From positions 73,490 through 137,489 of the forward strand of contig JBJOKS010000013.1 of the NCBI GenBank assembly GCA_046045965.1: a DNA stretch of 64,000 nucleotides. The letters run 5' to 3'. How positions within the stretch are numbered: the first letter of the stretch is position 1; each line of letters starts with the position of its first letter. A model generated the notes under the pieces. That model made no database searches, had not been told where the DNA came from, and was given only the letters and a program-made list of their open reading frames with translations. Shown here one piece after another: positions 9,583 through 64,000 of this stretch. A program made the position numbers and the translations under genes. This DNA comes from Cyanobacteriota bacterium. GTDB taxonomy: Bacteria > Cyanobacteriota > Cyanobacteriia > Cyanobacteriales > Nostocaceae.

Positions 9583-9617
9583 TAACTCAATCTGCTAATT
9601 ATACAATCAAATTAAAG

Positions 9618-14611: not shown

Positions 14612-14685
14612 TGGACGTAACTGGATTCGAACCAGTGACCCCATCGATGTCAACGATGTACTCTAACCAACTGAGCTATACGTCC
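14612..14685 (-). tRNA. tRNA-Val(GAC)
   Basis: GGACGTATAGCTCAGTTGGTTAGAGTACATCGTTGACATCGATGGGGTCACTGGTTCGAATCCAGTTACGTCCA folds as a cloverleaf with GAC anticodon; CCA not encoded. Confidence 0.97.
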
Positions 14686-14761
14686 TTAGCCAAAGCAATT
14701 TCTATCATAGCATATATATTTTCCAGGTCAAGAGCAAAATGCAACTAATGGCAAAAAGTAT

Positions 14762-15400
14762 TTAGCTCCTCGAACCTTCCACCACTTCCAACAAACTCCG
14801 CAACATCCAATAAGCAGAAGTTCCCCCTGGATCTTGATGTCCGATACTGCGATCGCCCAAATAACTGGCTCTACCCTTCTTTGCTAACATTGGTATAGTA
14901 GCCTTTAACCCACATTCCGCAGCAGTTACAGCTAACCGCAAAGCTTCCACAGTTCCCATACCTTCATTTACAGCTTGCTCAAAAGCCGTTACAGATGGAG
15001 ACAGCACATCAACCATTGTCTTATCTCCTAACTGCGCCTTACCACGCTCAACTACCCCATCTAAACCAGATTGAAGTAAACTTAACATATCTTTTGCAGT
15101 TAATTCCTGCTTATCAGCAGTGGCGGAACTAGCTCTTAAAAACCAAGTTCCATACAAAGGACCACTTGCACCACCAACGCTGGATATCAAAGTCATGCTG
15201 ACGGTTTTAAAAATGCTGCTGATATCCTTACCTGCAACACTCGGTAAAATACTCTTGACCTTCTTAAAACCTCTATCCATATTGATACCATGATCAGCAT
15301 CACCTATGGCTGCATCTAATTCCGTCAAATCTTCTTTATGATGCTCAATCACAGAAGCAAACACCATTAACCATTCAACAATTTGCACCTGAGTAACCAT
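14762..15400 (-). CDS. dhaL: Dihydroxyacetone kinase subunit L
   Basis: LDAAIGDADHG, GGASGPLYG, GDKTMVD, KGRASYLG; ATG at 15400 just after dhaK stop. Confidence 0.93.
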   Translation of the reverse strand: MVTQVQIVEWLMVFASVIEHHKEDLTELDAAIGDADHGINMDRGFKKVKSILPSVAGKDISSIFKTVSMTLISSVGGASGPLYGTWFLRASSATADKQELTAKDMLSLLQSGLDGVVERGKAQLGDKTMVDVLSPSVTAFEQAVNEGMGTVEALRLAVTAAECGLKATIPMLAKKGRASYLGDRSIGHQDPGGTSAYWMLRSLLEVVEGSRS

Positions 15401-15401
15401 T

Positions 15402-16475
15402 TCATACTCCCCAGCGTAAACTTGCGGTTTTAACTGGTGCATCCCATAACCGTAACATCTCTTCGTCTAACTTCAGCAGAGTGATGGAGCAACCTTGCAT
15501 TTCTAATGATGTCATGTAGGGTCCAATTAGATTACGCACTATTTGCAGTCCTTCCATCTCACAAATTTCTGCTAGTTTGCGGTAGACCAGATAAAGTTCA
15601 GAAACGGGAGTACCACCCATACTGTTAACATAAGCTAAGAGGCGATCGCCTTTTTGCAAGGGTTTATTTAACAGTTCCACATCTACCCATCCTTCCTTGC
15701 TTTCGTCCCATTCCCGCACTGTGCGACTATAGGCATTATCATCAATGAGTGATTGCACTAAAATCTCTGTAATTTCATCCCCAGAATTCATAGAAACCCT
15801 TTCTCGTCCTGGTTCTCCATGAATCCCTATTCCCAATTCTATTTGATCATCTTCCAAAGCAAAAGTCGGTGTACCCTTAGCAGGAACAGTACAAGAACTC
15901 AACGCTACCCCTACACTGCGGCCATGCAAATTCACCTTTCTACACAAATCTGCAACCTGCTGCAAATCATAACCTTTTTCCGCTGCGGCTCCACAAATTT
16001 TTTCTGCCAGTACCGTTGTTCCTACACCCCTTCTTCCTTGGGTATATAAACTATCTTTCACTGCCACATCATCATCAATGATAATATTCAAAGTGCGGAT
16101 ACCTTCACTTCTGGCTAATTCCGTTGCCATTTCAAAATTCATCACATCGCCACTATAATTTTTGACAATATAAAGAATACCCGCACCTCCATCTACCCGT
16201 TCCGCTGCTGCTAACATTTGATCAGGAGTTGGTGAGGTGAAAACCTCTCCAGGACAAGCAGCATCAAGCATTCCCTGACCTACAAAACCCGCGTGCATCG
16301 GTTCGTGACCACTTCCACCACCAGAAATAATTGCTACTTTTCCCTGTATAGGTGCATCGGCTCGATAGATAAAAGTAGGCTCATAATTTACCTGAATTAA
16401 ATCGCTATGAGCCGCCGCCATTCCTGCTAGACTTTCCTTTACAAAGTCTTCTGGTTGATTAATCAGCTTTTTCAT
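15402..16475 (-). CDS. dhaK: Dihydroxyacetone kinase subunit K
   Basis: [28 protein letters not shown]. Confidence 0.94.
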
Positions 16476-16609
16476 GATTTCTATTGGCAAAGGTGCTAAA
16501 AATCAGGATAAACTTTTACAGCACCAAATTTCAGCATTTTTGCTTATAGAAGGGAACTCTTAACAGGGAATAGTGTTGAAACTTCTTTGGAATCTGAATT
16601 TGATTTCTG

Positions 16610-17146
16610 TCACCTGTCACCTGCTACAACATTATTTAGTTTCAAGAAACTATCAAAAGCATACCAAGCTAAAACATACCAAGGAATTACTTCTAATTGC
16701 AGACCTTTAATCATTAACTGTCTCACAGCTAAGATACTCAATCCAAAGGGAAACAGAAAACGTAAATCAACAGTACCATCTGTAGCACGTTCAACTCGTT
16801 GGTTTAAGTCAATAACTGCATTAGATATACCCGTTGCTGCTTCTGTTTTACCTTGGGTAATATCTGCAAAAATTATGCCTATATCTTTTAGTGTTGCCAA
16901 AATTTCTGATAAAGCACCAGTTTGGGCATCATGATTAATAAGAATACTACCATGATGGATATTAGTTCGCACTTGAGTAATGTGAGGTTGTGCTGTTAAA
17001 AAATTGGCGATATGTTGTATTTTATCAGCTTGGCGGTTTTCCGGTGCAATTCTCAACCGTAGTCTTCCTGGAGTATCACTGACAATTTTTGTAGCTATGG
17101 GATTAAATGGTGTATTTAAACTTGCTTTCTCTGTAATTTCGAGCAT
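16610..17146 (-). CDS. HMA2-like domain membrane protein
   Basis: DTPGRLRLR...GSILI fold shared with N-domains of proteins at 55-64 kb; C-terminal hydrophobic PWYVLAWYAF. Confidence 0.75.
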   Translation of the reverse strand: MLEITEKASLNTPFNPIATKIVSDTPGRLRLRIAPENRQADKIQHIANFLTAQPHITQVRTNIHHGSILINHDAQTGALSEILATLKDIGIIFADITQGKTEAATGISNAVIDLNQRVERATDGTVDLRFLFPFGLSILAVRQLMIKGLQLEVIPWYVLAWYAFDSFLKLNNVVAGDR

Positions 17147-17179
17147 ATTTTAAACCTTTACCATGCAAAATTCATAATG

Positions 17180-17280
17180 GAAGCATTCAGCTAATAGCTA
17201 CGTCACGCTACTTTCTCGATGTTGAGTTTGGATATAAATTGTCTTGGCTGATAGCTGATAGCTGACGGCTGAATGCTTAC
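17180..17280. repeat. Short inverted-repeat element AAGCATTCAGC...GCTGAATGCTT containing GCTGATA STRR
   Basis: Terminal inverted repeats; shorter copy at 19265-19302. Confidence 0.6.
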
Positions 17281-17287
17281 TTACTAA

Positions 17288-17575
17288 TTACGAATTAGGT
17301 TGATTTTCAGCAGCTTCAAATGTAGGTGTATGTTGTTCTTCTGCTATTTCGGCTCTAGCTTCAGCGACAATATCTTCCCACGTTTCACCCAATTCTGCAA
17401 AAGCTCCCTTGCTTTTTTCATAAGCAACAAGTCCGCCTTTGATGATTGATTTAGCTATTGGTTTACCAATTCCTGCGACAACAGGGACTACCACAGGAGC
17501 AAGTAATACTGCACCAATTCCGGCTATAATTCCAGGAGCGCCAGCATCTTCTACAAAATCAGTAATTTTTGCCAT
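17288..17575 (-). CDS. DUF5132-like small membrane protein (GxxxG helix)
   Basis: GIIAGIGAVLLAP...KPIAKSIIKGG...EARAE; GGAGG RBS; paralog begins at 63929. Confidence 0.75.
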   Translation of the reverse strand: MAKITDFVEDAGAPGIIAGIGAVLLAPVVVPVVAGIGKPIAKSIIKGGLVAYEKSKGAFAELGETWEDIVAEARAEIAEEQHTPTFEAAENQPNS

Positions 17576-17798: not shown

Positions 17799-18330
17799 AT
17801 GTCAGCATCTACAGATGAATCTCAAAGTAATATTACTATCAGCGATCAACCTGCTGGAAAAGATAGTCTAGGTTTGACACCCTATGTCATCGCTATGACT
17901 GAATTTTTAACCCATCCTGACACCAAACCACCGCTAACTATTTCTATTGAAGGTGAATGGGGAAGCGGTAAATCTTCCTTTATGGAGCAATTGGAAGAAC
18001 AGATAAAAGTGAAGTCTAAAGAGGTGAGAAAACAAGAGTTACAAAAAGTCAGGAAGAATCTCAAAATTGATAGCGATTTATCAGAGATATGGAAATTTTT
18101 ACAATTACGCTTTGGACAAGAAACTCAAACAGTTTGGTTTAATGCTTGGAGACATGAAAAAGCTGCTGATTTATTACAAGCTTTAAATATGATGATTTCT
18201 AATGATCCGCAGATAATTTTTATCTTGGGTATGGATCGGGAAAAGGTAGCAGCGGGGATAACATATAAACAGAAGAATGTACTTCCGTATTTAGCTTCTA
18301 TTAGAGGAAAAAACCAAGATTCAACAGAAT
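17799..18330 (+). pseudogene. Internally deleted KAP-family NTPase, paralog of 22098-24476
   Basis: Walker A GEWGSGKS retained; WFNAWRHEKA joined directly to ADLLQALNMM, so TMs and Walker B are lost; then runs into a different frame. Confidence 0.85.
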
Positions 18331-18342
18331 CAGGAGTTGATT

Positions 18343-18630
18343 ATGAAATTATCAGAAATGTATCAACAATTATTGGAAGAACTGAAAGAAGAACAAAGAC
18401 AAGAAGGAAGAGAAGAAGGTCGTCAAGAAGGTCGTCAAGAAGGTCGGCAAGAAGGAGAAATAAGAGAACGTCGTGCAATGGTGGAAAGTATTTTACAAGT
18501 AAGGTTTGGAGAAGTTGATCCTGAATTAGCAAACATTATTGATCAGGTAATTACCATGTCTAGAGATAAATTTACTCCACTACTTTTAAATTTATCTCGT
18601 GCAGATTTATTAAATAGGTTTACAAACTAG
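18343..18630 (+). CDS. Standalone C-terminal module of Rpn-like protein (95 aa)
   Basis: Closely similar to 25277-25576; AGGAG RBS 6 nt before ATG; QEGR repeats. Confidence 0.6.
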   Translation: MKLSEMYQQLLEELKEEQRQEGREEGRQEGRQEGRQEGEIRERRAMVESILQVRFGEVDPELANIIDQVITMSRDKFTPLLLNLSRADLLNRFTN

Positions 18631-22097: not shown

Positions 22098-24476
22098 ATG
22101 TCTAACGAAGAATCGAACCAGAATAATATTATTATTAGCGATCAAAGTGCTACAAAAGATAGTCTTGGTTTTGAACCTTATGTAATAGCTATGGCTGATT
22201 TCTTAACTAATCCTGACACACAACCGCCGCTAACTATTTCTATTGAAGGTGAATGGGGTAGCGGTAAATCTTTTTTTATGGAGAAACTTGAAACCCACAT
22301 AAAAGTGAAGTCTGAAGAGTTGAAAAAAGAAAAGTTAAATAAAGTTAAACGTGCTTCATGGCAATTTTGGAAATTAAAGTGCAGCCAAAAAACTCAAACA
22401 GTTTGGTTTAATGCTTGGAGACATGAAAAAGCTGAATCACTTTGGGCTACTTTTGCAATCTCTTTTTTAGAAGAAATATCTAGAAATCGTGATTGTCGAG
22501 ATTTTATACATAATCTATATAGTTCCTTACTACTGTTTATAAAACGTCTAGATTTTAAAGAGAAACCAATGAAATCTCTTCAGACATTATTTAGTGGAAT
22601 CGTAATTTGCAGTATTATTGTAGGGTTTATATATGTTGCTTTTTTTAAAGTTGGCTTTGCTGGAATTTCTAATTGGTCTGAACAGGTTGTAGAGATTATA
22701 GAAAAATCAAAGGGTGCAGATAAGGAAGAACCAAAAAACGAGCAAAAACCCAGCAGTAAAAATGCGGAAAATCTGCCTTTAACTCTCTCATTATTATTTG
22801 GAGGTGCTGCTGGTTCATTGGCCGGAGTAGGTAAACTTCTGGCCAAGTTAAAGGAATTAATTGGTGATCCGAAAATGGATTTGACTCAATATCTGGAATC
22901 ACCTGACTATAAAAGCCAAGTTGCTTTTGTGGAAAAGTTCCATGCAGATTTTAGGAAGATTGTGGAAGCTTATGTAGGAAAAGATGAAAAAGTTTATGTT
23001 TTTATTGATGATCTTGACCGTTGTGAATTAGGTAAAGCGGCTGATTTGTTACAAGCTCTCAATATGATGATTTCCAATGAACCGCAGATAATTTTTATTT
23101 TGGGTATGGATCGAGAAAAGGTAGCAGCAGGGATAACATATAAACAGAAAGATGTACTTCCCTATCTGGCTTCAATTGCAGGAAGAAATCAAGATCCGAA
23201 AAAAGAAATTGATACCATAAGCAAGCAGTTGAACTATGGCTTTAGTTATCTGGAAAAATTTGTTCAATTATCCTTTACACTTCCCAAACCTTCAGAAAAT
23301 AGTTTAGATGGCTTTTTTGAAGATCTATCTTCTAGTCATAAAGAAAAGGTAACTTCTGAAAAAAGCTTTTTTTGGACTTCTACTGTCTTATTTATCAACC
23401 AAAAGTTCGATGATGTAAAAAGTAAAATAAAAAAGTCTAAGAAAGCAGATACAAAATTTGATACAGAATCAGAAGTTAAAGAAAATTCAAAACCTAATCA
23501 TCTAGAACTAGCACTTTTCCCCATCGTTAAAAAACATTTAGAAAAAGATGAAAAAGAAGACCTTATAAAAATGGTTGCTCCTTTTTTTGATAATAATCCT
23601 CGTCGATTGAAGCAATACATTAATGGATTTAGATTAACAAGATATATCTATTATTATGCCATTGGAGTTAAGTGGGAGGAAAAAAAGCAAATAATAACTC
23701 AACAGCAATTAGGTAAGTTTGTGGCAATTACTCTCCAATATCCCCGTCTTTTAAATGAACTTAAAAAAGACAATATGCTACTTAACCAGTTAGAACAGTG
23801 TGCTATTGATAAATTCAATCAATCGAATAGTTTTAATAATTCTCAGAATACTGAACTTACAGTCAATAATCAGGGAGATGCAAATTACGGAGATGCAAGT
23901 TACTGGGTAAACACATATCAAAAACTAGCAGAATTACTTTACTATGGAGTGAAAACAGATCCGGACAATTATAGTCTTAAAAATGAAGGTATTAAAAAAC
24001 TCCTGGAAGTTTCACCAAAACTAGAGCTACCTTCTAAATATTTCAAACTGCGTGAGTTTCTGGAAGAGAAAAAATGGCAAGATGCAGACGTAGAAACGCT
24101 GATTTTAATGCGGAATGTAGCCGAGCGAGAGGGTTATGAAATGAATGGTAAGGCGTATTTTAGAACTATCGAAGATTTTCCTTTAAAAGACCGCTACATT
24201 ATTGACCAACTTTGGGTAAAATACAGCGCAGGACACTTTGGTTTTTCTGTCCAACAGCGCATCTATCAAGAATTCGGTGGTACTATTATCAATGATGATG
24301 AAGAAATCAGGAACAAATTCCTCAATCACGTAGGATGGCGACAAGAAAACGACCTCACCTTCACAGCGGATGCGTATGAAACAGCACCCAAGGGATATCT
24401 CCCTAAAAAAGTGTATTGGTACATCAGCATAAGGGAATTAACATTTGAAAACCAGGACAGAGATTCTCTTCTCTAG
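22098..24476 (+). CDS. KAP-family P-loop NTPase with C-terminal GUN4 domain
   Basis: D-LG, GEWGSGKS, WFNAW, two TMs, FIDDLDRC, YLEKFVQ, NPRRLK; GUN4-like WQDADVET, DQLWVKYSAGHFGFSVQ, APKGYLP. Confidence 0.85.
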   Translation: MSNEESNQNNIIISDQSATKDSLGFEPYVIAMADFLTNPDTQPPLTISIEGEWGSGKSFFMEKLETHIKVKSEELKKEKLNKVKRASWQFWKLKCSQKTQTVWFNAWRHEKAESLWATFAISFLEEISRNRDCRDFIHNLYSSLLLFIKRLDFKEKPMKSLQTLFSGIVICSIIVGFIYVAFFKVGFAGISNWSEQVVEIIEKSKGADKEEPKNEQKPSSKNAENLPLTLSLLFGGAAGSLAGVGKLLAKLKELIGDPKMDLTQYLESPDYKSQVAFVEKFHADFRKIVEAYVGKDEKVYVFIDDLDRCELGKAADLLQALNMMISNEPQIIFILGMDREKVAAGITYKQKDVLPYLASIAGRNQDPKKEIDTISKQLNYGFSYLEKFVQLSFTLPKPSENSLDGFFEDLSSSHKEKVTSEKSFFWTSTVLFINQKFDDVKSKIKKSKKADTKFDTESEVKENSKPNHLELALFPIVKKHLEKDEKEDLIKMVAPFFDNNPRRLKQYINGFRLTRYIYYYAIGVKWEEKKQIITQQQLGKFVAITLQYPRLLNELKKDNMLLNQLEQCAIDKFNQSNSFNNSQNTELTVNNQGDANYGDASYWVNTYQKLAELLYYGVKTDPDNYSLKNEGIKKLLEVSPKLELPSKYFKLREFLEEKKWQDADVETLILMRNVAEREGYEMNGKAYFRTIEDFPLKDRYIIDQLWVKYSAGHFGFSVQQRIYQEFGGTIINDDEEIRNKFLNHVGWRQENDLTFTADAYETAPKGYLPKKVYWYISIRELTFENQDRDSLL

Positions 24477-49560: not shown

Positions 49561-52500
49561 TTACTCTATCGGGAAACCAGGAATTAAATAATCAATTTCT
49601 TGCATTAACCGCAAGGTTTCTGTTAAAGCAACAACGATTTTTTGATAGTGGATAATCTCATCTTCAGATAATACTCGATTAGCATTTTTTCTATCTTTTA
49701 ACCATTTATCCAATACTTGATATCCACCTATTTTAAATTCCCAGATGTGTTGAGGAATATCTGTAAAATAATTCTGTTTATTGATATAAACTCTTTGCAA
49801 TTCTGAATTATAGGTAACTTCAGTAATTTGATTATCTCCTATTTGTTGATAGGTTGTAATTAAATTATCGAGTTTTTCAGATTTCATTAAATGTAAATTG
49901 ACTAATTCTTCTCCTTTGGTAGCTAAAGAATTAAATAGTTTTTGATTACTGGTTAAGGGAAGACGGGGAAAATCAATCTTGAGAAATTCAGCGTATCTAG
50001 TGCGATAGATAGGACTGTGAAAAATAGCATAAGCATAGTAAAATATTTGTTCTGGAGTTGGTATTTTACCAAGTTTGTTTTTTATAGTTTCTAAGAATTT
50101 TGGGGATAAGTTAGGAGTTTTTTCTACGAAAAGGTTAGTTTGTTCATTTTCTGTATTTGGATAAGTGTAGAGAGGGAAAACACTTGGTCTACCTCTATTA
50201 CTAAAAAAACTACGATTATCAACTATATGATTACAAACCATAAAATGTGTATATTGATTATCTCCTGAAGCTACTTGTCTCATCGCTAATAGTCCCAGGT
50301 TATTCTGAATTAAATTTGTTAAAACTTTTTCTTGCATTCTTCTAAGAATACTATGAAAATAGGTAAATCTTATATCAAAGGGTCTATAATATATCGGTTG
50401 AATTAGATTATTTTCGATTCCATTTTGAACAATTAATAATCTGGATTTAAAAAAGTTCCAATTAGAAGAATCTGCAATTTTATAAACATCAGCTATGTCT
50501 TGATCAGAAATTTTGGGGTTAGCTAAAATTTTAATAAATTCTTGAATTTTATTTTTTTCAAAAGCAACTAAAACATCATCTTTTCCAGTTTCTATGACGT
50601 TAGAATAGACTAAAAATATATCTTGAAGACTCCAATATTTTTTATATTCTTTTTCTGTATCTGAACAATAATTGATAGCAGTAAAAAAGTAATTTGGTGC
50701 AGTTGGTTGTAACTCTATCCAATCAACATTATTTAAACTTGTAGATTCTAAAAACTTATATTTTTCATCACGACTTCCCCACAGATCATAATACCACACC
50801 TTAGCCATTTCCTTGATACCATCTCTGGATTTATAAGCAGTAGAAAAATAATCAGGTTCGCTTTTTTCGCGCACAGCAATTAAAATAGATACACCTTGTT
50901 GAATATCAAAAACATTTTGATCAACATTTCCCTCTGGTGTAGTTTCTTTTAATAAAGAATTACCATGTAAATCCATAATATATAAAGTATCAAAATACTT
51001 TAATAACTCCTCTCTCATACCGCGATGAATTAACCCATTGAGATAGGAATGATTAGTAATAAAACCGATGATACCATAGCCTTTAGGTGTTTTTTGAATT
51101 TGATATTGAGCAAAACGAATAAATTTAATATAATCATCATCTAAAGGTTGAATATTCTTTTCTTTTTCTAACCTAACTCTACCTTTATATAATTCTAAAA
51201 GTTCTCCAATATGGGTTAATTCAGTAATAGTTTTACCAGCTTTTCCGGTTTTATAAATCCGATTCCAAACTGAACCAGTATATTCAACATCAGCTAAATA
51301 TCTTTCATCTTGGTTTAAGATTCTTTTGCGTTTACTCGCATTTTGGGAACTAACAGAATAAGGAGGATTTCCTAATACCACCATTACGGGAATTTCGGTT
51401 TTCACTTTTCCAGCTTGACTGGATTCTTCAGCTATAATTTGCGTGATACCAGGAATCAAATCACCTTGTTTTATTCCTTCTTCCAACGCATTAGTTAAAT
51501 AAATATTTAATCTTTCATCCGGTGCAAATTTATAACCCAAATCTCCTAATAATAAACCTAACTTTAGATGTGCTATGGTGTAAGGAGTCATTAATAACTC
51601 AAACCCAAAAAGACGATTTACAAGTTTTGCATCTCTTAAAAAACTATTCCATTTATCAATTCCATATTTAGCGACATTATCCCGAATTTGTTTGATAACT
51701 GCATATAAAAAAGTTCCTGTACCTGTTGCGGGGTCAAGAATAGTTACTTTTCTATTTCCTAAACCATGTTGTAAATCGAAAATTTCTTCATTCACTAAAA
51801 TATCATTAACAGCACGCACAATAAAATTAACTACAGGTTCAGGAGTGTAATAAACTCCGCGACTTTTTCTTAATGAAGATTGATAAGCAGCTAAAAATGT
51901 TTCATAAAAGTGAATAACCGGGTCTTCTGTGCGGGTTTCTCGTCCGAAGGTTTCTAAAATATTGGTCATGTCAACTGTATTTAGTAATTCTACTAAATTT
52001 TCAATTGACTTATGAATTTTACTAACGCTATCTGTAGCAATAACTATATCAAATAAACCTTTCAAAAAAGGGATTCTATCACTAATATAAATACTGGCTG
52101 TTGTGCGGTTAAATGTAAATTGTCCAGGGTTTTGTGCATGACCAATTCTCGCAGTAAATAAACCATAAGCAATGGTTTGAGCATACATATCCGCAAAACT
52201 TTGATTATCTATATCCAGAATCAATATTTGTTTAAATGTTTCTTTTAATTGATTTAATTGTTCTGTATATGTTTCTATTTCCAAAGATGAGAAAATCGCG
52301 TTTCTAATAGTTTTAGTATAAGCTGCCATTTCTTTAGCCAAATCATAATAGTTATTAATATCTTTGGCTTTTTGGTCAAGAAATAATTGCAGTAATTCTG
52401 TAATAGGTTGTAAATCATCAACCAGCGTAATTTCACCTTGTTCTAAATCAGCTAATTTCGCAGTTTTTTCACATTCTCCATCGACATACCAACGAAATTC

Positions 52501-52806
52501 CAGGTAATTAGTTAAAATCAAGTTGTAACCAATATTGGATTCTAAATAACGTTTAATTTGTTCTGTTTTTTCGGTTTTCTTTAAATCAACATTAATATCC
52601 TTAGCTTCGATATATCCCAAAACTCGATCATTTTTTCTGATGGTAAAATCAGGAATACCTTCTTGATTACCTTTTTCTTCAATTCTGGCATTAATTCCAA
52701 TCATTAAACCTTCAATGAGACGTTGTAAACTAGGGTAATGACTGCGTTCTCCACCGCGTTTAATGTTGGTTTGTAAATCTTGGATGTAGTTGTTAAAATT
52801 AGACAT
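49561..52806 (-). CDS. Single-chain restriction-modification enzyme (nuclease + N6-adenine MTase + type ISP-like TRD; no helicase)
   Basis: PDF..IEAK nuclease, GVYYTP, LDPATGTGTF, GNPPY, YRPFD, DFPRLP, IGGYQVLDKWLKDR. Confidence 0.88.
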   Translation of the reverse strand: MSNFNNYIQDLQTNIKRGGERSHYPSLQRLIEGLMIGINARIEEKGNQEGIPDFTIRKNDRVLGYIEAKDINVDLKKTEKTEQIKRYLESNIGYNLILTNYLEFRWYVDGECEKTAKLADLEQGEITLVDDLQPITELLQLFLDQKAKDINNYYDLAKEMAAYTKTIRNAIFSSLEIETYTEQLNQLKETFKQILILDIDNQSFADMYAQTIAYGLFTARIGHAQNPGQFTFNRTTASIYISDRIPFLKGLFDIVIATDSVSKIHKSIENLVELLNTVDMTNILETFGRETRTEDPVIHFYETFLAAYQSSLRKSRGVYYTPEPVVNFIVRAVNDILVNEEIFDLQHGLGNRKVTILDPATGTGTFLYAVIKQIRDNVAKYGIDKWNSFLRDAKLVNRLFGFELLMTPYTIAHLKLGLLLGDLGYKFAPDERLNIYLTNALEEGIKQGDLIPGITQIIAEESSQAGKVKTEIPVMVVLGNPPYSVSSQNASKRKRILNQDERYLADVEYTGSVWNRIYKTGKAGKTITELTHIGELLELYKGRVRLEKEKNIQPLDDDYIKFIRFAQYQIQKTPKGYGIIGFITNHSYLNGLIHRGMREELLKYFDTLYIMDLHGNSLLKETTPEGNVDQNVFDIQQGVSILIAVREKSEPDYFSTAYKSRDGIKEMAKVWYYDLWGSRDEKYKFLESTSLNNVDWIELQPTAPNYFFTAINYCSDTEKEYKKYWSLQDIFLVYSNVIETGKDDVLVAFEKNKIQEFIKILANPKISDQDIADVYKIADSSNWNFFKSRLLIVQNGIENNLIQPIYYRPFDIRFTYFHSILRRMQEKVLTNLIQNNLGLLAMRQVASGDNQYTHFMVCNHIVDNRSFFSNRGRPSVFPLYTYPNTENEQTNLFVEKTPNLSPKFLETIKNKLGKIPTPEQIFYYAYAIFHSPIYRTRYAEFLKIDFPRLPLTSNQKLFNSLATKGEELVNLHLMKSEKLDNLITTYQQIGDNQITEVTYNSELQRVYINKQNYFTDIPQHIWEFKIGGYQVLDKWLKDRKNANRVLSEDEIIHYQKIVVALTETLRLMQEIDYLIPGFPIE

Positions 52807-52900
52807 AACCAGCAGCAGCACATTAATAGATAATTTTCGTTTGACAATAGCATAAAACTATTTATAAGTGACTGAATTGTAGCGAAAAATTACAATAGTC

Positions 52901-55168: not shown

Positions 55169-57379
55169 TTACTGTTCATCTTTGTGCATCAGTGGACGTA
55201 AACCATTTAACCCCGCCGCTATAGCAGAACCATTATGTACTACTGTCGCTGCTAAGGGGTGCATTCCTACGGTTGCAGCTAGTCCTAATGCGGCTAAGTT
55301 GGGAATTACTGCTAAACTGATATTCTGTTTAATGACGCTTTTGGTTTCACGAGCGATCGCTATTGCATCCACAAAACTGGTTAAGTTATTATTCATTAAC
55401 ACAACATCGGCTGTTTCTCTGGCTATCTCTGAACCATCACCAAAGGATATAGCCGCATCAGCATAAGCTAAAGCAGCAGAATCATTTAACCCATCTCCTG
55501 TATATCCTACGGTTTTTCCTGCGGCTTTTAATTGCTGAATAATTTCTGCTTTGCTTTCGGGAAACGCTTCTGCATGAACATTATTTAATGGTATACCTAA
55601 TTCCTCAGCTACCATCATCGCTTTATCCTGACTATCTCCTGTTAACAAGTGAATTTCCATTCCGTATTCGGTTTGTAATTCTTGGATAATAGCTGGACTT
55701 TCAGGACGCAGGGGGTCAGTGTAAGAAATTACCCCAGCAAATTGACCATTAACTGCTACATATAATAAGGAATCATGAGCAGAAATTCTACAGTGTAGTC
55801 TGCGCTGGCATTTTCCAGGATGACAGCTATGTTCAGCATACAAACAAGTGAGGGAAATGCCGAATTTAGCTAATAGGCGATCGCTACCAACTAATACCTC
55901 ATTTCCATCTATTCCCGCAATTACACCTAAACCGATTTCATAACTCCACTTTCCACGGGGTAAAATTTCTACTCCCTGTTCCTGTGCATAACGCATCACT
56001 GCTTCTGCAACGGGATGGGTTAATCTTTGTTCTGCTGCTGTAGCTAATTCTAATAATCTGGCAGCAGATATCCGATTAATAACAGGTTCAACTTCCACTA
56101 TTTGAATATTCCCCTGAGTTAAAGTCCCAGTTTTATCAAAAACTAAAGTATCAACTTGTGCTAATTTTTCTAAAGCTCGACCGCTACGGATAAGTACACC
56201 ATGTCTAGTTGCATGAGTTAAAGCGGCTAAAAAGGTTGTGGGGAGAGAAACACGAATCCCGGTAACAAAATCTAAGGTTAAAATAGATGCGGCTCTGGCT
56301 GGGTTGCGAGTAGCAGCTAATACTAAACCTGCAAATAATAAAGAAGGAATTACAGCTTTATCAGCAATAGTAGAAGCATAGTTTTCCATGCGGGTATCGT
56401 GAACCGGTGCTTGTTGCACTAACTCAATACTTGCACCTGCACGAGTAGCATTTCCTACTTTCTCGGTTTTAATATAAATTTCCCCTTCCCTGACCAAAGT
56501 GGAAGCATATACAGTTTCGCCAATTTCTCGTAATACAGGCAGAGATTCACCTGTAAGCTTTTGCTGGTCAATTAAAGCTTTACCATGTAAGATTTGCCCA
56601 TCTACGGGTATTTGCTCACCTGGATAGACTATAACTGTATCATTTACTTGGACATCTGTAGCGGTGATTTGTTTTTTCTCGCCATCGGGTTGCAGTACCC
56701 ACGCATAACGTCCCAAAGAGTCGAGTAAGTCAGAAGCGTTTTGTTGAGATACTCGCGCTGTGCGATCGCGAATCATATCACCAATTTCATGCAGTGTCAT
56801 CACTAAAGCCGGAGTGAGTAAATTTCCTTGCGCTGCGGTGAGGGAAATGGCCATAAAATCTAGGCAATCTATATTTAATTTATGATTTACTGTTAAACTT
56901 TGATAAGCGCGTTTAGCTACAGGAAAAGCAGCCAAAGCGACAACGGAAGCAATTAAACTGGTAGGAATAGGAATTGTTAAACCCAGTATAGCTAAACCAG
57001 CAGCTAAAGCGGGTAATTTGATACCTGCATCTTCTTCTTCCTTTATAGTTGCAGTTGTAGGAGTATCCTGTATAACTGTAGCAACTTGAAGCGAGCGCAC
57101 CACATCCTGGAAAAAAGATTGATGATGATCCGCTTTCAGTTGATAATTAATAGCAATAGAAGCAGCATGACGATTAATACGAATAGCTGTCACCCGACTA
57201 TCAGCTTGTAAAATTCCTTCCAAACGCAAAGCATAATCTTTATTATCTGCTAACAAAGGAACACGAAACCTGATCCGGCCAGGAATGGAATGAACGACAT
57301 GATAAGTAATAGCAGTATTTATCTGCTGTATATCAGACTTTATCCGTCCGTCTCTTGCTGCTTGCACTGCTAAAACCAT
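55169..57379 (-). CDS. P1B-type ATPase, non-CPC (P1B-6/FezB-like)
   Basis: HSIPGRIRFR N-domain, TGES, LDFVTGIRVSLP in place of CPC, DKTGTLT, HP, GDGLND, HNGS; ATG 57379 with purine-rich RBS. Confidence 0.88.
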   Translation of the reverse strand: MVLAVQAARDGRIKSDIQQINTAITYHVVHSIPGRIRFRVPLLADNKDYALRLEGILQADSRVTAIRINRHAASIAINYQLKADHHQSFFQDVVRSLQVATVIQDTPTTATIKEEEDAGIKLPALAAGLAILGLTIPIPTSLIASVVALAAFPVAKRAYQSLTVNHKLNIDCLDFMAISLTAAQGNLLTPALVMTLHEIGDMIRDRTARVSQQNASDLLDSLGRYAWVLQPDGEKKQITATDVQVNDTVIVYPGEQIPVDGQILHGKALIDQQKLTGESLPVLREIGETVYASTLVREGEIYIKTEKVGNATRAGASIELVQQAPVHDTRMENYASTIADKAVIPSLLFAGLVLAATRNPARAASILTLDFVTGIRVSLPTTFLAALTHATRHGVLIRSGRALEKLAQVDTLVFDKTGTLTQGNIQIVEVEPVINRISAARLLELATAAEQRLTHPVAEAVMRYAQEQGVEILPRGKWSYEIGLGVIAGIDGNEVLVGSDRLLAKFGISLTCLYAEHSCHPGKCQRRLHCRISAHDSLLYVAVNGQFAGVISYTDPLRPESPAIIQELQTEYGMEIHLLTGDSQDKAMMVAEELGIPLNNVHAEAFPESKAEIIQQLKAAGKTVGYTGDGLNDSAALAYADAAISFGDGSEIARETADVVLMNNNLTSFVDAIAIARETKSVIKQNISLAVIPNLAALGLAATVGMHPLAATVVHNGSAIAAGLNGLRPLMHKDEQ

Positions 57380-57785
57380 ATTCTTCCCCCTGACTTCCAA
57401 AAAGGAGTTCAGCAGTTACAGAACTTACAGGAGTACCAAATTCTCTCTGACTCAGAGAAAGTAAAAAGTAATTAATCTGTGAATTTAAATTTTCCGTAGC
57501 AGTAAAAAAGCTGATAAAAAACCGAATTATCAAAACTCGGATAGAATGACCAGAGAATTTAGGATTGACTGTAAAACTTATCTTCTCAACTCCTGTCAAG
57601 TCTAAACTTGTGACTTCCTACAATTATTTTTATACAATACAACGTTTTAGGGATTTTAGCAAAACTTTGGCGTATAATTTCTCAGTTTTTTTAGTGATAT
57701 TTTGTATCATCTCAGATGAGAAAAATTGCAAAAATAAACATTGATTTACATAAATTATTAATCTAGTTCATAAAACTAAATTCTT

Positions 57786-57804
57786 ATTGAAAGTTATTCT
57801 CAAT
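57786..57804. promoter_or_regulatory. Fur-box-like 19-bp dyad
   Basis: ATTGAAAGT-T-ATTCTCAAT (7/9 symmetric) 65 bp upstream of feoA. Confidence 0.65.
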
Positions 57805-57869
57805 TTTAATGAGAAGTGCTAGTATTAACAGAAGATAAATTTTAACTAAATTTTGACCTGGAGTGAGCA

Positions 57870-58163
57870 ATGAGAAATAGCTATCTCGCTTCATTACAAC
57901 CACAGCAAATCGCTACTATTAGTCACTTAGCACCAGAAACCGGCTTCAACCAAAGATTGCAAGCATTAGGTTTTCGAGTTGGACAACAGGTAGTTATGCT
58001 GCGTAAAGCTTGGTTTTCTGGTCCTGTTCATGTTCGTGTTGGCATGACAGAAGTTATACTACGCCGCCAAGAAGCTCAAAAAATAGCAGTCACAAATATT
58101 ACGAATTTAATAGACTTTGATACACCACAAGTACCAAAAATTACCAGGCTAATAAACTCTTAA
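57870..58163 (+). CDS. feoA: Ferrous iron transport protein A
   Basis: RLQALGFRVG, GPVHVRVG..VILRRQEA; GGAG RBS. Confidence 0.92.
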   Translation: MRNSYLASLQPQQIATISHLAPETGFNQRLQALGFRVGQQVVMLRKAWFSGPVHVRVGMTEVILRRQEAQKIAVTNITNLIDFDTPQVPKITRLINS

Positions 58164-58271
58164 TAAACATAGGTGACAGAAAGGAGAAAAGAGGGAATAG
58201 TTGTGTCTCTTTCATTTGTTACAAGAGCGAGAAATGCGTCCGTTAGGCGCTCTTAATTTGCATATTTCTAT

Positions 58272-58295
58272 TGTGGGATGGGCATCTTGCCCGTC
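58272..58295 (+). repeat. REP-like palindrome TGTGGGATGGGCATCTTGCCCGTC
   Basis: Short hairpin between feoA and feoB. Confidence 0.6.
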
Positions 58296-58330
58296 ATGAA
58301 TATCACAATTAAATACAAGGTGAAACTACC

Positions 58331-60124
58331 ATGAAACAAGTAGCCGTTCTGGGAATGCCTAATACGGGCAAATCTACGTTTTTTAACCGCCTCACTGGTG
58401 CAACTGCAAGTATCGGCAACTGGCCAGGAATTACCGTAGATTTAATGATGGTGCAAGTTAAATTTGGTGAAGAAACCGTTGAAGTAATAGACTTACCAGG
58501 CATCTATGACTTACGTGGTTTTTCGGAAGATGAACAAGTAGTAAGAGACTTTTTAGAACATACTCCCATAAATTTACTTTTACTCATTCTTAATACTACC
58601 CAAATTGACCGCCAAATTAGCCTCGCATTGCAGGTTAAGCATTTGGGAGTACCTGCGGTACTGCTATTAAATATGTGCGATGAAGCACCTGAGTTTGGAG
58701 TGGAAGTAGAAGCAGAAAAAATGTCAGCACATTTGGGGATGCCAGTAATGCCAATTAGTGCTAAATATGGCAGTGGTTATGGGGAAGCTTATCAAACCAT
58801 TGAAAATAGCATCCAGCATCAAAATGAACCAGTTGTTATCGGTGAAATTGCAGGACATTTAATTGCTGATCATCAAATTGCCACAGAAATGGGTCATCTT
58901 TTGCAAGATGCAGTCCATACTCCTTCCCATGTCAAAGAAAATTTGACTACTCGCCTCGACCGCATTTTACTACATCCTGTGTGGGGATTACCAATCTTTT
59001 TTGCAGCGATGTATCTGATGTTTCAATTTATCTATGCTGTGGGTACACCATTGCAAGAATTGATGGGGTCAATTTTTGACGGGATACAAAATAGCGTTTT
59101 AGTTCCTGCTTTAGCCAATGCACCAGAGATTTTACGGGGATTTTTAATAGACGGTTTATACACAGGAGTCAGCACTGTAGCGGCTTTTATTCCTGTAATT
59201 ATCTTATTTTTCTTCGTCATGGCCATCATTGAAGATAGCGGTTATTTATCCCGTTCCGCTTTTTTGATGGATGCGTTAATGGCAAAATTGGGTTTAGATG
59301 GACGTTCCTTTGTCATGTCGCTGATGGGTTTTGGGTGTAACGTACCGGCGATTATGGGAACAAGAGTAATGCGATCGCCCGCTTTACGGATGCTATCAAT
59401 GTTAGTCATCCCTTTTTCTCTCTGTTCTGCAAGGCTTAACGTCTTTCTATTCATGACAACGGCTTTATTTTCACCCCGTCATGCACCTTTGGTTTTATTT
59501 AGTTTATATCTTCTCAGTTTTGTCGCCACCATTGTCACAGCTTTATTATTCAAACATCATTATCCCAACCAAGAACCCTTTGTTTTAGAACTACCTCCCT
59601 ATCGTTTCCCCACTCTCAAACAAATGTTAATTCGTGCTTGGTGTGAGGTGAAGAACTTTGTCAAATGGTCCCATAGATTTATTATCTTTGGTGTTGTAGC
59701 AATTTGGGCATTAAATAATTTTCCTCCTGGTGTTCCTGCTGCCAGTTCCCAAACATTATCAGGCATAATTGGACAATGGACTCAACCTATTTTAGCACCT
59801 TTAGGAATCAATCCCCAATTAGCAGTAGCACTAATTTTTGGTTTTATTGCTAAAGAGATTGTTTTAGGAGGGTTAGCAGTAATTTATGGTCAGAATGATG
59901 ATGGACAATTAGCAGGAATTATTGCCAATCAAATAGACTGGGTACAGGCTTATAGTTTTATGCTGTTCACTCTTTTATATGTACCTTGTTTATCAACCAT
60001 AGCCGTACTCAAAACGGAATCTAAGAGCATCAAATTTGCTACTATAGCCGTTGCTTGGTCTATCGCTTTAGCTTGGGTAGCAAGTTTTATCTTTTATCAA
60101 GGTGCAAGAATTTTGGGATTTTAA
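58331..60124 (+). CDS. feoB: Ferrous iron transporter FeoB
   Basis: GMPNTGKST, GNWPGIT, DLPG, EDSGY, GFGCNVP, CSARL, ELPPY, YVPC. Confidence 0.96.
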   Translation: MKQVAVLGMPNTGKSTFFNRLTGATASIGNWPGITVDLMMVQVKFGEETVEVIDLPGIYDLRGFSEDEQVVRDFLEHTPINLLLLILNTTQIDRQISLALQVKHLGVPAVLLLNMCDEAPEFGVEVEAEKMSAHLGMPVMPISAKYGSGYGEAYQTIENSIQHQNEPVVIGEIAGHLIADHQIATEMGHLLQDAVHTPSHVKENLTTRLDRILLHPVWGLPIFFAAMYLMFQFIYAVGTPLQELMGSIFDGIQNSVLVPALANAPEILRGFLIDGLYTGVSTVAAFIPVIILFFFVMAIIEDSGYLSRSAFLMDALMAKLGLDGRSFVMSLMGFGCNVPAIMGTRVMRSPALRMLSMLVIPFSLCSARLNVFLFMTTALFSPRHAPLVLFSLYLLSFVATIVTALLFKHHYPNQEPFVLELPPYRFPTLKQMLIRAWCEVKNFVKWSHRFIIFGVVAIWALNNFPPGVPAASSQTLSGIIGQWTQPILAPLGINPQLAVALIFGFIAKEIVLGGLAVIYGQNDDGQLAGIIANQIDWVQAYSFMLFTLLYVPCLSTIAVLKTESKSIKFATIAVAWSIALAWVASFIFYQGARILGF

Positions 60125-60280
60125 GGGAAGGTGACAGGTGACAGGAAGAAGAAGCAGGGGAGCAGGGGAGCGGAGGATAAATATGATCTTTTTTTGCCTT
60201 TTCTCAATTACCAATTACCAATTACCAATTACCTTAAAGAAATACTAAGAAATATCAAGAAATGGTAGTAAAAATTACGG

Positions 60281-60329
60281 ATTATAAAATTATTCTCAAG
60301 AAAGAGGCTTATTGAGAAAATAATCAGTT
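60281..60329. promoter_or_regulatory. Fur-box-like AT-rich sites
   Basis: AAATTATTCTCAAG and ATTGAGAAAATAATCAG share the ATTGAGAA/TTCTCAA half-site seen at feoA. Confidence 0.45.
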
Positions 60330-60375
60330 ATATTGAAATTACCGTGAATCTCTGACTTGGTGCAGCTATCAAAAA

Positions 60376-61458
60376 ATGACCACAACCATCAGTAGTACCA
60401 ACAATAGCTTGAAGTTAAGTCCCCAGTTGGAAGAACATCCCGATTTAACTTCTACCCAGAGTCAAAACCCTAGTCAAACAGTTGACGAGGTGCAATTGGA
60501 TCTACAATTACAAGTTGTTCATGCGATCGCTGGCAGGGTACGCATCCGTACTATTGATGGTAGTTGGAATTCACAGATTGAACATCTATCCCAAGAGTTA
60601 AAACAGCAAAGTTGGGTATTAAAGATTTCTGCTAATGAAAACACGGGAAGTTTGATTTTTACCTTTGATGAAAATCAATTACCATTATCACAGGTTTTGC
60701 AAGTATTAACAGAATTTGATGTTAAATATTCTCCATCTGCAACTAAACTCGATTTAGCTGAAATTAAATCTCCTGGGTTTTGGCAAAAACAATCTAATTC
60801 TATAATTCCTTTAATTGCTGGTTTACTCGTAACAAGAGGTTTAAAAGTTAGTGGCTTTCCAGCAATTTTAGTTTACATGATAGCCGCAGATGGAACTCGG
60901 TGGTTAATGGATTCTTTAGAACCGGGTTTGTTGACTGCTGTCATCGGGAAAACTGCCCAAAAATTAACCCAAACAGAAATACCATTACCGGGGTTAACAA
61001 AAGTGAATAAAAAATCTACTACCAAAACAACAACACCGGGAAAAATAGATGCTCAAATTGATTATAAAGTTGTACATCAAATTCCGGGGAGAATTCGTTT
61101 TCATCTGTCACAAATTGCCCAAGATTCAGCATACTGCAAAAGATTAGAAAAACTACTCAAAACTGATGCAGAAGTTAGCAATTTTCGGGTAAATATTCAA
61201 GCAGCATCAGTATTAATAAACTATCACCATCCAGAAACCAGTATCACCCATTGGGTAAACCTGATGGAATTAGCTTTATTAACAGAATTACCACCACCAG
61301 AAATAGTAACTCCCACCCCTGAACCTCCAACAGTGACAAATTTATTTGAGGACACAAATATAGATAATATTGATATAGATTTATCAAACTTGTGGACAGA
61401 TTTAAAACCCGCAATGATGTCTTATTCCTTAGCAGTAATGGCGAACTTTTCGTTATAA
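60376..61458 (+). CDS. Protein with two HMA2-like domains and a central hydrophobic hairpin
   Basis: HAIAGRVRIR and HQIPGRIRF motifs; no CxxC. Confidence 0.78.
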   Translation: MTTTISSTNNSLKLSPQLEEHPDLTSTQSQNPSQTVDEVQLDLQLQVVHAIAGRVRIRTIDGSWNSQIEHLSQELKQQSWVLKISANENTGSLIFTFDENQLPLSQVLQVLTEFDVKYSPSATKLDLAEIKSPGFWQKQSNSIIPLIAGLLVTRGLKVSGFPAILVYMIAADGTRWLMDSLEPGLLTAVIGKTAQKLTQTEIPLPGLTKVNKKSTTKTTTPGKIDAQIDYKVVHQIPGRIRFHLSQIAQDSAYCKRLEKLLKTDAEVSNFRVNIQAASVLINYHHPETSITHWVNLMELALLTELPPPEIVTPTPEPPTVTNLFEDTNIDNIDIDLSNLWTDLKPAMMSYSLAVMANFSL

Positions 61459-61472
61459 CAGTTTCACGCTTA

Positions 61473-61586
61473 ACACCAATTTTATATGAGGCTGCACAGA
61501 ATCATAAAATCCGCCTTTATCTGCGTTTATCTGCGGTCAATTATTCTTGATATCTTATTCTATGCAGCTTCTTAAGAATTTGGTAT
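61473..61586. mobile_element. MITE-like element with ~30-bp imperfect TIRs and TTTATCTGCG repeats
   Basis: ACACCAATTTTATATGAGGCTGCACAGAAT vs reverse complement of right end ATACCAAATTCTTAAGAAGCTGCATAGAAT; related CGCAGATAAA repeats at ~55132-55165. Confidence 0.65.
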
Positions 61587-61607
61587 AAAAGCATTGGAGG
61601 AAAAGGA

Positions 61608-63863
61608 ATGGCACAAACAACAGCTTCATTAGGATCAATTCCCCAGGAATTTCCTCTCAAAACTAAAAGTCAAGAAAATGGTAAAGTTGTCAAACTTCCT
61701 GTATTGATTAATAACAAAGATAGAAAATCTCAAATATCTCAAATAAGTTATAGCTTTGTTCATGCTATTCCGGGAAGGTTGCGGTTAAAAGTACCAAATT
61801 TACAGCATGATGAAAAATACAATCAAAGATTACAAACTTTACTCCAAGCAGAACCATTAATTACAAGTTTTCGCATTAATTCAGCCGCAGCATCTTTAAT
61901 TATCACTTATCAGATTAGCATCGTTTCTGAAAAGGAAATGCGCTGCTATTTAAATAATTTACTATTAGCTGCTAGTCAAATTATTTCCACTTCTCAACAT
62001 AGTCCAACTTCTCAACCCCAAGAAAAACCTAAATCTAGTTTATCAATGTCAGCAGTAGCTACAGGTTTAGCTGTCTTAGGAGGTAGTTTCGGTTTACCTA
62101 TTCCCCCAGTTTTCATAGTTGGAAGTATTGCTGTTGCTAGTTTACCAGTTTTCCAAAGAGCAGTTACAGGAATTGTCAAACAGCGTAAATTTACAATTGA
62201 CTTTTTAGACTTTTTAGCAATAGTCATTACCACGTCCCAGGGGAATTTTCTCGCACCTGCCCTGATGTTAAGTTTAATAGAAATTGGGGAAAATATCCGC
62301 GATCGCACTGCCCGATCTTCCCAACTACAAACATTAGACCTTCTCAGTTCTTTAGGACAATTTGTATGGGTTGAAAGAAACGGAGAAAAGCTAGAAATTG
62401 CTATTCAAGAAATCCAAAAAGGTGATATTGTTATTGTCTATCCTGGTGAACAAGTCCCCGTTGATGGCAAAATCATTAAAGGTAAAGCCTTACTCGATGA
62501 ACAAAAACTCACAGGTGAGTCAATACCCATCTGCAAAACTAAAGGACAACCGGTATTTGCTTCTACCCTAGTACGGGAAGGCAGAATTTATATTGTCGTC
62601 GAAAGAACAGGTAATGATACCCGTGCGAGACAAAGTATCAAATTAATGCAAGAAGCACCAGTCCATGATACCCGCATGGAAAACTATGCAACGACAATTG
62701 CCGAAAAAGCTGTATTGCCAACTTTGCTACTAGGAATCACAGTATTTACCCTCACACGCAACGCCGCCAGAGCCGCCAGCATCCTGACTTTAGATTTAGC
62801 CACAGGAATTAGAGTATCAATTCCTACGGCAGTTTTAGCGGCTCTTAGTTATGCAGCTAAACATGGTGTACTTATTCGCAGTGGTAGAGCCTTAGAACAA
62901 CTAGCACAGGTTGATACAATAGTCTTTGATAAAACCGGCACACTGACAAAAGGCGAAGCAGAAGTTATTGGTGTCGAGAGTTTCCATCCCGATGTTTCTC
63001 CGTTGCGAGTTTTAGCCTTAGCAGCAGCCGCTGAACAAAGATTAACTCATCCGGTAGCAGAAGCGGTAATACGCTACGCGGAAAACCAAGGTGTAGAAAT
63101 TCCTAACCGCAGTAAGTGGAACTACCAACTTGGTTTAGGTGTAGAAGCCATAATTGATAGTGAAACAGTCTATGTGGGTAGTCAACGTTTTCTACATCAA
63201 CAAAACGTAGATATGTCAACCTTACCAGCATCAACTCAGGAGGTAGAATCAACAATTTATGTTGCCAGTAATGGACAATTACAAGGTAAAATCAAGTATA
63301 GAGATGTATTGCGAGCAGAAAGCCAGGAAGTAATTAATCAATTGCTCACGGTGTCAGAAATAGACGTGCATATTCTCACCGGTGACAACAAGCGAACTGC
63401 TAGGATAGTGGCTGCTGAACTGGGAATTTCGCCATCACATACCCATGCAGAAGCCTTTCCCGCCCAAAAAGCCGCTATTGTTCAGCAACTACACGACACA
63501 GGAAAAACAGTTGCGTTTGTAGGAGATGGGATCAATGATTCACCTGCTTTAGCTTATGCTGATGTATCCATATCCTTTGGCAATGGTGCGGATATTGCTA
63601 GAGAAACAGCAGATGTGGTATTAATGCAGAATGATTTGTATGGTTTGTTAACAGCAATAGAAATTGCCCATCAGACGAAACAACTAATTCAGCAAAATAC
63701 AGCTATTGTGGCTATTCCTAACTTAGCAGCATTAGCGATCGCTGTCTGCTTTGGACTTAACCCCCTAGCCGCAACCATAGTTAACAACGGTTCTACAGTC
63801 ATAGCCGGAGTTAACGGTTTACGTCCCATCTTGAAAATGAAGGGAGCAGGGGGAAAGAGATAA
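61608..63863 (+). CDS. Second P1B-type ATPase, non-CPC (P1B-6/FezB-like)
   Basis: HAIPGRLRLK, TGES, LDLATGIRVSIP, DKTGTLT, HP, GDGIND, NNGS; GGAGG RBS. Confidence 0.88.
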   Translation: MAQTTASLGSIPQEFPLKTKSQENGKVVKLPVLINNKDRKSQISQISYSFVHAIPGRLRLKVPNLQHDEKYNQRLQTLLQAEPLITSFRINSAAASLIITYQISIVSEKEMRCYLNNLLLAASQIISTSQHSPTSQPQEKPKSSLSMSAVATGLAVLGGSFGLPIPPVFIVGSIAVASLPVFQRAVTGIVKQRKFTIDFLDFLAIVITTSQGNFLAPALMLSLIEIGENIRDRTARSSQLQTLDLLSSLGQFVWVERNGEKLEIAIQEIQKGDIVIVYPGEQVPVDGKIIKGKALLDEQKLTGESIPICKTKGQPVFASTLVREGRIYIVVERTGNDTRARQSIKLMQEAPVHDTRMENYATTIAEKAVLPTLLLGITVFTLTRNAARAASILTLDLATGIRVSIPTAVLAALSYAAKHGVLIRSGRALEQLAQVDTIVFDKTGTLTKGEAEVIGVESFHPDVSPLRVLALAAAAEQRLTHPVAEAVIRYAENQGVEIPNRSKWNYQLGLGVEAIIDSETVYVGSQRFLHQQNVDMSTLPASTQEVESTIYVASNGQLQGKIKYRDVLRAESQEVINQLLTVSEIDVHILTGDNKRTARIVAAELGISPSHTHAEAFPAQKAAIVQQLHDTGKTVAFVGDGINDSPALAYADVSISFGNGADIARETADVVLMQNDLYGLLTAIEIAHQTKQLIQQNTAIVAIPNLAALAIAVCFGLNPLAATIVNNGSTVIAGVNGLRPILKMKGAGGKR

Positions 63864-63928
63864 AAACGGCTTGCTGCCTTCGTTAAACAAATATTTTCAA
63901 CTATTTTCAACTGGAGAGTAATAAAAAT

Positions 63929-64000
63929 ATGCCTAAAATTACAGACTTAATGGAACACGCTGGTAGACCTCGAATTCTCGTTGGTATTGGTGCAGTATTA
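63929..64000 (+). CDS. DUF5132-like protein, 3'-truncated by window edge
   Basis: MPKITDLMEHAGRPRILVGIGAVL aligns with MAKITDFVEDAGAPGIIAGIGAVL at 17575; GGAG RBS. Confidence 0.75.
   Translation, partial: MPKITDLMEHAGRPRILVGIGAVL

Follow-up and report, generated by a model that had tools for sequence, protein, structure and literature searches.

Gene content of the locus

The locus closes the window (the whole stretch of 64,000 nucleotides that was analysed) and holds two P1B ATPases (pumps A and B), feoA, feoB, a protein with two HMA_2 domains (2xHMA2) and the start of a small membrane protein gene (Table 1). The end of the window is also the end of the contig (C13), which cuts the last open reading frame. 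The original prediction of two paralogous P1B ATPases without CPC/CPx, placed around feoA-feoB together with a double-HMA2 membrane protein, agreed with the coordinates and the domain matches: TM4 reads LDFVTGIRVS in A and LDLATGIRVS in B. Its R-rich N-domains without CxxC were recovered as HSIPGRIRFR (A) and HAIPGRLRL (B), in N-terminal HMA_2 domains (PF19991). The two pumps are 54% identical, and TGES, DKTGT, HP, TGD and GDG are intact in both. For pump A, a TTG seven codons upstream of the ATG is a possible alternative start. The 2xHMA2 protein has a single hydrophobic stretch, near residue 143. A second feoB was not found in the assembly, that of the locus being the only one.

Table 1 Positions of the features of the locus and of the native dnaA/def site within the window.
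Feature	Position	Strand	Remarks
P1B ATPase A, 736 aa from ATG	55169..57379	-	HMA_2/CoBaHMA N-domain; TM4 DFVTG, TM6 HNGSA; feo-linked clade
Four-Cys/His loop of pump A (nucleotide-binding domain)	55790..55846	-	Cys count across clade rows
Fur-type palindrome	57786..57804		84 bases upstream of feoA; distance to the pump A start about 400 bases
feoA	57870..58163	+	PF04023
feoB	58331..60124	+	TIGR00437 over cut-off
Two weak Fur-like boxes, forming the TTCTCAA-N12-TTGAGAA element	60282..60318		Same element in the furA promoter
Decayed Pho box	60322..60351	+	Aligned position by position with the ancestral operons' three-repeat SphR box; altered TTAA cores
2xHMA2 protein, 360 aa, first gene of the pump B operon	60376..61458	+	One hydrophobic stretch with an HMA_2 (CoBaHMA) domain on either side
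P1B ATPase B, 751 aa	61608..63863	+	TM4 DLATG, TM6 NNGST; nested in the Pho-box clade linked to dnaA/def
DUF5132 small membrane protein, start only	63929..64000	+	Cut by the contig end; identity from orthologs
Orphaned native HMA2-membrane gene at the dnaA/def site	16610-17146	-	Whole remnant spans 16610..17575
Orphaned native DUF5132 copy at the dnaA/def site	17288-17575	-	

The open reading frame at 63929 was assigned to DUF5132 by its orthologs. In contigs of three runs it continues for 246 aligned bases without gaps, compared with the Richelia locus. The small GxxxG membrane protein expected at this position was thus identified as a gene, but the motif is missing from the 24 visible residues: at the position of the first Gly in the orthologs, which carry GxxxG, there is an Arg, and the window sequence at this point is matched exactly by two RNA-library contigs. 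The rest of the pump B operon was sought in the assembly; the contig ends, and no second HMA2-membrane gene was found. RNA-library contigs from two studies overlap parts of pump A, feoB, 2xHMA2 and pump B, and one contig per study spans the end of pump B and DUF5132 (depth 36 and 23), although such contigs say nothing on transcription, its level or its regulation.

A generic scan of the locus for promoters and terminators stayed at chance level. Between feoB and the 2xHMA2 promoter there are short tandem repeats of a cyanobacterial type (60130-60235), which match many unrelated contigs. A large N6-methyltransferase/type ISP-like restriction-modification gene, read from motifs, adjoins ftsH (49561-52821, minus strand) and is conserved in three genomes of the same genus.

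Family placement of the pumps

Trees were computed under LG+G4, with SH-aLRT support only, for 74 and 138 proteins; the latter were the members of 600-950 aa among 150 cluster representatives. The FezB-type references were defined by the DYSCA motif (from plasmid records and metagenomes) and are not experimentally tested FezBs. CtpC-like, ZntA, CopA and CadA-type pumps were included. Both pumps fell in a cysteine-free clade, hereafter DxxTG (SH-aLRT 99), sister to the D[Y/F]SCA proteins with a joint support of 99-100 in the two trees. CtpC-like ACPCA pumps branched further out than FezB in both.

The ATPase phylogeny had been set beforehand as one of the refuting tests. On 31 of the 74 rows, the AU test rejected a grouping of DxxTG pumps with ZntA/CadA-type (P1B-2/4-type) pumps (p=0.0002), and the CPC/SPC of P1B-2/P1B-4 exporters is missing from TM4 of both pumps; they do not group with the Zn/Cd/Co exporters. 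Neither pump is FezB. In the accessible part of the ferrosome preprint (Grant and Komeili, bioRxiv 10.1101/2020.01.10.902569), FezB is defined by D[Y/F]SCA in TM4 and HNxxT in TM6, and the R-rich motif is common to related pumps. The original assignment to P1B-6/FezB fails on this printed definition. TM4 has DFVTG in A and DLATG in B, and in TM6 HNGSA of A keeps the His and NNGST of B the Thr. The R-rich N-terminal motif is present on the pumps and their partners and, according to the preprint, is not FezB-specific. A placement of clade A within FezB was also rejected (AU test, p=0.0001, the same 31 of 74 rows, with motif-defined FezB references). Since the Cys and Ser ligands of FezB are absent, the motifs give no ground for an inherited Fe(II) specificity.

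No DYSCA-level match was found in 251 cyanobacterial genomes among the four candidates scored per genome, the best reaching 31-36% identity. A search for FezB homologs returned only near-identical Fusobacterium proteins, and a metagenome scan gave Arcobacter-like loci, without a DxxTG pump in the motif census. Pump homologs at E 1e-100 were present in 36 of 61 genomes of the bacterial family.

The model of pump B has a P1B ATPase fold (pLDDT 77). Its best structure match was ZntA (4umw, E 4e-41) at only 29% identity, and no solved structure was found within the DxxTG family. The predicted complex of pump B with DUF5132 scored 0.06, a value that speaks neither for nor against an interaction. 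Pump A differs from pump B in a loop of its nucleotide-binding domain: four or more Cys occurred in 13 of the 20 parsed clade-A rows (three of the 23 were not parsed) and in 0/14 parsed rows of pump B's 15-row clade. We infer that this four-Cys/His loop is a candidate metal or Fe-S sensor.

The DUF5132 profile matched a small Azospirillum protein whose gene precedes that of a DYSCA pump (hhalign 74%, E 2.8e-5; Pfam E 0.0026). Homology of DUF5132 to DUF1490 is not convincing, as a weak BLAST similarity (E 3e-4) reached only 8% in the profile comparison.

Pump A and the feo genes

Genes for feo were found within 6.5 kb in 29 of 45 His-bearing clade-A loci, in 3/70 clade-B loci (the three relocated ones, see below) and in 0/15 clade-C/D loci. 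Where at least 5 kb were present on both sides, 22 of 31 clade-A loci were feo-linked. These counts cover distinct cyanobacterial loci that are kin and were chosen by similarity, and are descriptive only. Clade-A genes often stand in feoA-feoB-feoC-(ferritin)-HMA2-pump-DUF5132 strings, co-oriented behind feoABC, and in Microseira a clade-A pump lies behind a FecCD-type ABC operon. In the window, pump A is transcribed away from feoA, and the nearest Fur box is the distant one of Table 1.

Ferritin was found in two clade-A operons (L041 and L278). These have the most fez-like arrangement, with feoA, feoB, ferritin, feoC, an HMA2 protein, pump and DUF5132 (L041, in genome G059, at 8259-16535), and are a better test object than the window locus.

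In three genomes of the same genus (99, 99 and 80% complete) pump A gave no match at E 1e-120. One same-genus genome keeps only deletion remnants, namely A and the start of feoB beside ftsH, with 90-94% identity, like the flanks. The module therefore looks dispensable. In view of the remnants, a recent horizontal gain into the window genome alone was rejected; judged from these sequences, the block entered the genus early or was inherited, and was later lost in the relatives searched.

Relocation of the pump B operon

Clade-B pumps adjoin def/dnaA in 41 of 70 loci, in the order 2xHMA2-(HMA2)-pump-DUF5132-HMA2. Next to feoAB, the operon was found in the window genome and in three other genera. 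Richelia sinica has the gene order of the window, followed by DUF5132, an HMA2-membrane gene and dhaK. In Tolypothrix FACHB-123 and Calothrix anomala, the B operon and pump A stand back to back, with feoB behind. In these three the relocated block holds the only copy of pump B that was found. Relocated pump B is intact in all four genera, with 76-80% identity. The four relocated As and the four relocated Bs each form a clade with a support of 100 in the 74-row tree, which argues for one relocation event rather than four. The branch leading to the relocated B clade is longer.

The native dnaA/def site also lies in the window. Its DUF5132 and HMA2-membrane genes remain (Table 1), but the site lacks pump B and the 2xHMA2 gene; a same-genus genome shows an equal loss of pump B at this site. 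The original idea of one unitary iron locus is replaced by that of an iron-linked pump joined to a relocated phosphate-regulon operon. Between def and DUF5132, the usual place of 2xHMA2 and pump B is occupied by a fragment of a KAP-family P-loop NTPase (17799-18518, plus strand). A longer KAP-family paralog follows just after dnaA (22098-24476, plus strand).

From Pho box to Fur-like boxes

Printed SphR (Pho) sites consist of tandem CTTAACCT-type repeats with 3-base linkers. The gene all2006 of Anabaena PCC 7120 is a predicted Pho-regulon member with a printed Pho box in the consulted part of Su et al. 2007 (PMC1906773). In loci L029, L135 and L136, the 2xHMA2 gene is preceded by a 30-mer with exactly the sequence of this box. 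Going by this match, all2006 is very likely the same gene as 2xHMA2.

A repeat score of at least 20 of 24 was reached by 64 of 72 B promoters (duplicates included) vs 84 of 3933 upstream regions of the window genome, whose top matches include genes read as ppk and pstS. The eight low-scoring promoters were three unusable regions, one unexplained case (L031) and the four relocated ones. The promoter in the window scored 17, the genome median. Once duplicates, regions that were short or masked, and four regions with wrongly set starts had been excluded, 52/56 ancestral promoters vs 0/4 relocated ones had the two-repeat pattern. Position by position, the relocated promoters can still be aligned with their ancestral counterparts, with altered TTAA cores. 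Nostoc-type B loci away from dnaA (L098, L101-L106, L110, L114, L126) have a TGATAATCATTATCA-like palindrome upstream of the Pho box and the 2xHMA2 gene, which we take to be Zur-like.

For Fur, a palindromic 19-mer matrix was learned from 17 other feo promoters. It gave ATTGAGAATAATTCTCAAT, which resembles printed cyanobacterial Fur boxes. The predicted site before feoA, a 19-base AT-rich inverted repeat as expected in the FurA regulon, scored 20.7 (rank 1 of 4069 in the genome) and fits the consensus printed in PMC7546424. The 2xHMA2 promoter box scored 8.6 (rank 227 of 4069), and is part of the paired TTCTCAA-N12-TTGAGAA element. The genome has four copies of this element, one of them immediately upstream of furA; two Fur boxes are listed for furA of PCC 7120. 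The TTGAGAA half-site was found in 1/56 ancestral B promoters vs 4/4 relocated ones. Of the Fur-like boxes predicted at the outset, the one at feoA thus stood firmly and the one before the B operon weakly, and the iron-gene association with Fur control, as in fez clusters, is likewise predicted strongly for feoA and weakly for B.

The controls were thin: isiA was not found in the genome as a positive control, and most of the top matches of the matrix that were scanned there are not known iron genes. Outside the training set, only 3/16 clade-A upstream regions scored above 14, and no strong Fur box was found between the pumps of Tolypothrix and Calothrix (best 7.1). To judge from the promoter alignment, the Pho repeats of the relocated B promoter have disappeared and paired Fur half-sites similar to those of furA have been gained, and the pump B operon is now likely under iron control. 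At the level of sequence, the 2xHMA2 promoter is a clear example of an apparent change of regulon. The third-best Fur box in the genome belongs to a multicopper oxidase (contig C50:1160-2185), and a gene of the same homologous family heads a Fec-type operon upstream of a clade-A pump (L074, 5173-6138).

Proposed function and alternatives

P1B pumps export cations from the cytosol. Efflux pumps and an Fe(II) importer under one iron repressor would be best explained if the cargo is stored instead of discarded, as in fez systems, or if a co-imported cation is removed. On balance we lean towards a Fur-repressed module for Fe(II) uptake and likely transfer of surplus iron from the cytosol to a membrane-bound buffer. 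Low iron would lift Fur from feoAB and the pump B operon, and FeoB would import Fe(II). Pump A, with Asp in TM4, His in TM6 and its four-Cys loop as a possible sensor, would export Fe(II) from the cytosol. The pumps may be scaffolded, in the manner of FezA/FezC, by DUF5132 and the HMA_2 membrane proteins. Pump B would be a recruit from the phosphate regulon; what it carries is the most uncertain part of this scheme. The receiving space could be a dedicated vesicle, the thylakoid lumen or the periplasm. Storage would fit better than detoxification, because an efflux-type pump would share its control with an importer. The phosphate-regulon origin of pump B as a pointer to an Fe-phosphate store is suggestive, no more.

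True ferrosome-like Fe-phosphate vesicles in an oxygenic cyanobacterium, with DxxTG pumps in place of FezB, appear unlikely. The fez parts list is present, with an R-rich pump, R-rich membrane partners and a small protein whose orthologs are of the GxxxG type, and the Azospirillum match of DUF5132, the sister-clade position of the pumps and the Fur box fit as well. However, the FezB signature motifs and DYSCA-level matches are lacking as described above, the genome already has ferritin-family genes, and no report of ferrosomes in cyanobacteria was found in the literature searched. Published ferrosomes, as far as the sources consulted describe them, contain an Fe(II)-phosphate that is sensitive to oxygen, and are found mostly in anaerobes; such a mineral disfavours vegetative cells and favours micro-oxic states. 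That a ferrosome-like compartment arose from non-FezB pumps, through capture of a phosphate-starvation operon rewired from SphR to Fur, is a similarly doubtful proposition. If it were true, the DxxTG family would be a general kit for ion-storage compartments, with cargo and control (Fe, P-linked, Ca) swapped between paralogs.

Plasma-membrane exporters in scaffolded patches of the CtpC/PacL style, with no store, would remove a non-iron cation entering via Feo, or load periplasmic metallo-enzymes, e.g., Fe/Ca phosphatases. PhoX and PhoD need Fe/Ca, and we infer that Pho control of ancestral pump B fits metal supply to secreted phosphatases. The oxygen-donor ion site, the R-rich domain common to CtpC-like pumps and the weak BLAST similarity of DUF5132 to DUF1490 point the same way. 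We give this little credence, as the DUF1490 match fails in the profile comparison, CtpC-like pumps branch beyond FezB, and the ferritin in two clade-A operons points to storage. Quite improbable is a neutral rearrangement that put the B operon beside feoAB with loss of promoter control, so that only feoAB, and perhaps pump A, would be iron related, while B decays or handles calcium/phosphate. The single event, the weak B boxes, the broken GxxxG of DUF5132 in the window, the loss of B at the native site in the genus and the longer branch could all be read in this way. Yet pump B is intact in four genera at the identity given above, all four relocated promoters retain the new TTGAGAA half-site, and B, A and feo stay together in two different gene orders.

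Relation to known systems

CtpC/PacL (DUF1490) of actinobacteria is modelled as a metal-efflux platform. It resembles the locus in combining an R-rich P1B pump with a small membrane partner, and differs in its ACPCA site, its more distant branch and the unconvincing DUF1490-DUF5132 homology. P1B-2/P1B-4 pumps (ZntA, CadA and CoaT types) share the overall P1B fold and the database labels, but have the CPC/SPC that is missing here, and the grouping was rejected.

With fez clusters, as described in the accessible part of the preprint, the locus has in common a CPC-less P1B pump with an R-rich N-domain, R-rich membrane partners, a small hydrophobic partner and an iron-gene neighbourhood; larger fez clusters also have a second pump, FezH. 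The differences lie in the pumps, which have DxxTG and HNGSA/NNGST instead of D[Y/F]SCA and HNxxT, in the oxygenic host, and in the origin of one pump from a Pho-box operon. The proposed kinship with ferrosome loci therefore holds for the sister-clade position, the R-rich HMA_2 partners, the related DUF5132 and the iron linkage, and not for FezB identity: the locus is real and fez-like, but not FezB. A literature search (ferrosome with cyanobacteria, the pumps, DUF5132 and CoBaHMA) found no study of these pumps; subscription papers or supplements may list them, e.g., among 'related P1B-ATPases'.

The locus offers a testable route to whether ferrosome-type storage exists in aerobic phototrophs, and to what is carried by the DxxTG pumps, a large and uncharacterised sister family of FezB. 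The block also occurs in Richelia sinica FACHB-800, and PCC 7120 very likely has the ancestral Pho form, from all2006 onward, so that both states can be compared. Unlike the region of all2006 as far as it is described in print, the homologous stretch in the window has no Pho repeats and its operon lies away from dnaA/def.

HMA_2 (PF19991) is the CoBaHMA domain of the calcyanin papers (PMC8890360; bioRxiv 10.1101/2024.07.07.602159). In the parts of these that were available, DUF5132 genes adjoin CoBaHMA genes in Microcystis, and calcyanin neighbourhoods are tied to calcium carbonate inclusions and cax, whereas the partners in the window are feoAB and a Fur box. Calcium-linked pumps belong to other DxxTG clades than A and B. 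The neighbours of clades C/D include genes that we read, by sequence, as cax, carbonic anhydrase and USP, and such calcium genes beside related clades count against the iron reading of the window locus. At L042, L045-L050 and L282, a similar neighbourhood holds paired pumps of the DxxTG family (DFGTG plus DFSHS/DFGHA), which are probably calcium related. The window genome also has a calcium-type operon on another contig (C22:50322-55090), with a DUF5132/HMA-like gene, an HMA_2-fused P2-type (PEGL) ATPase and a SAM-synthetase-like gene.
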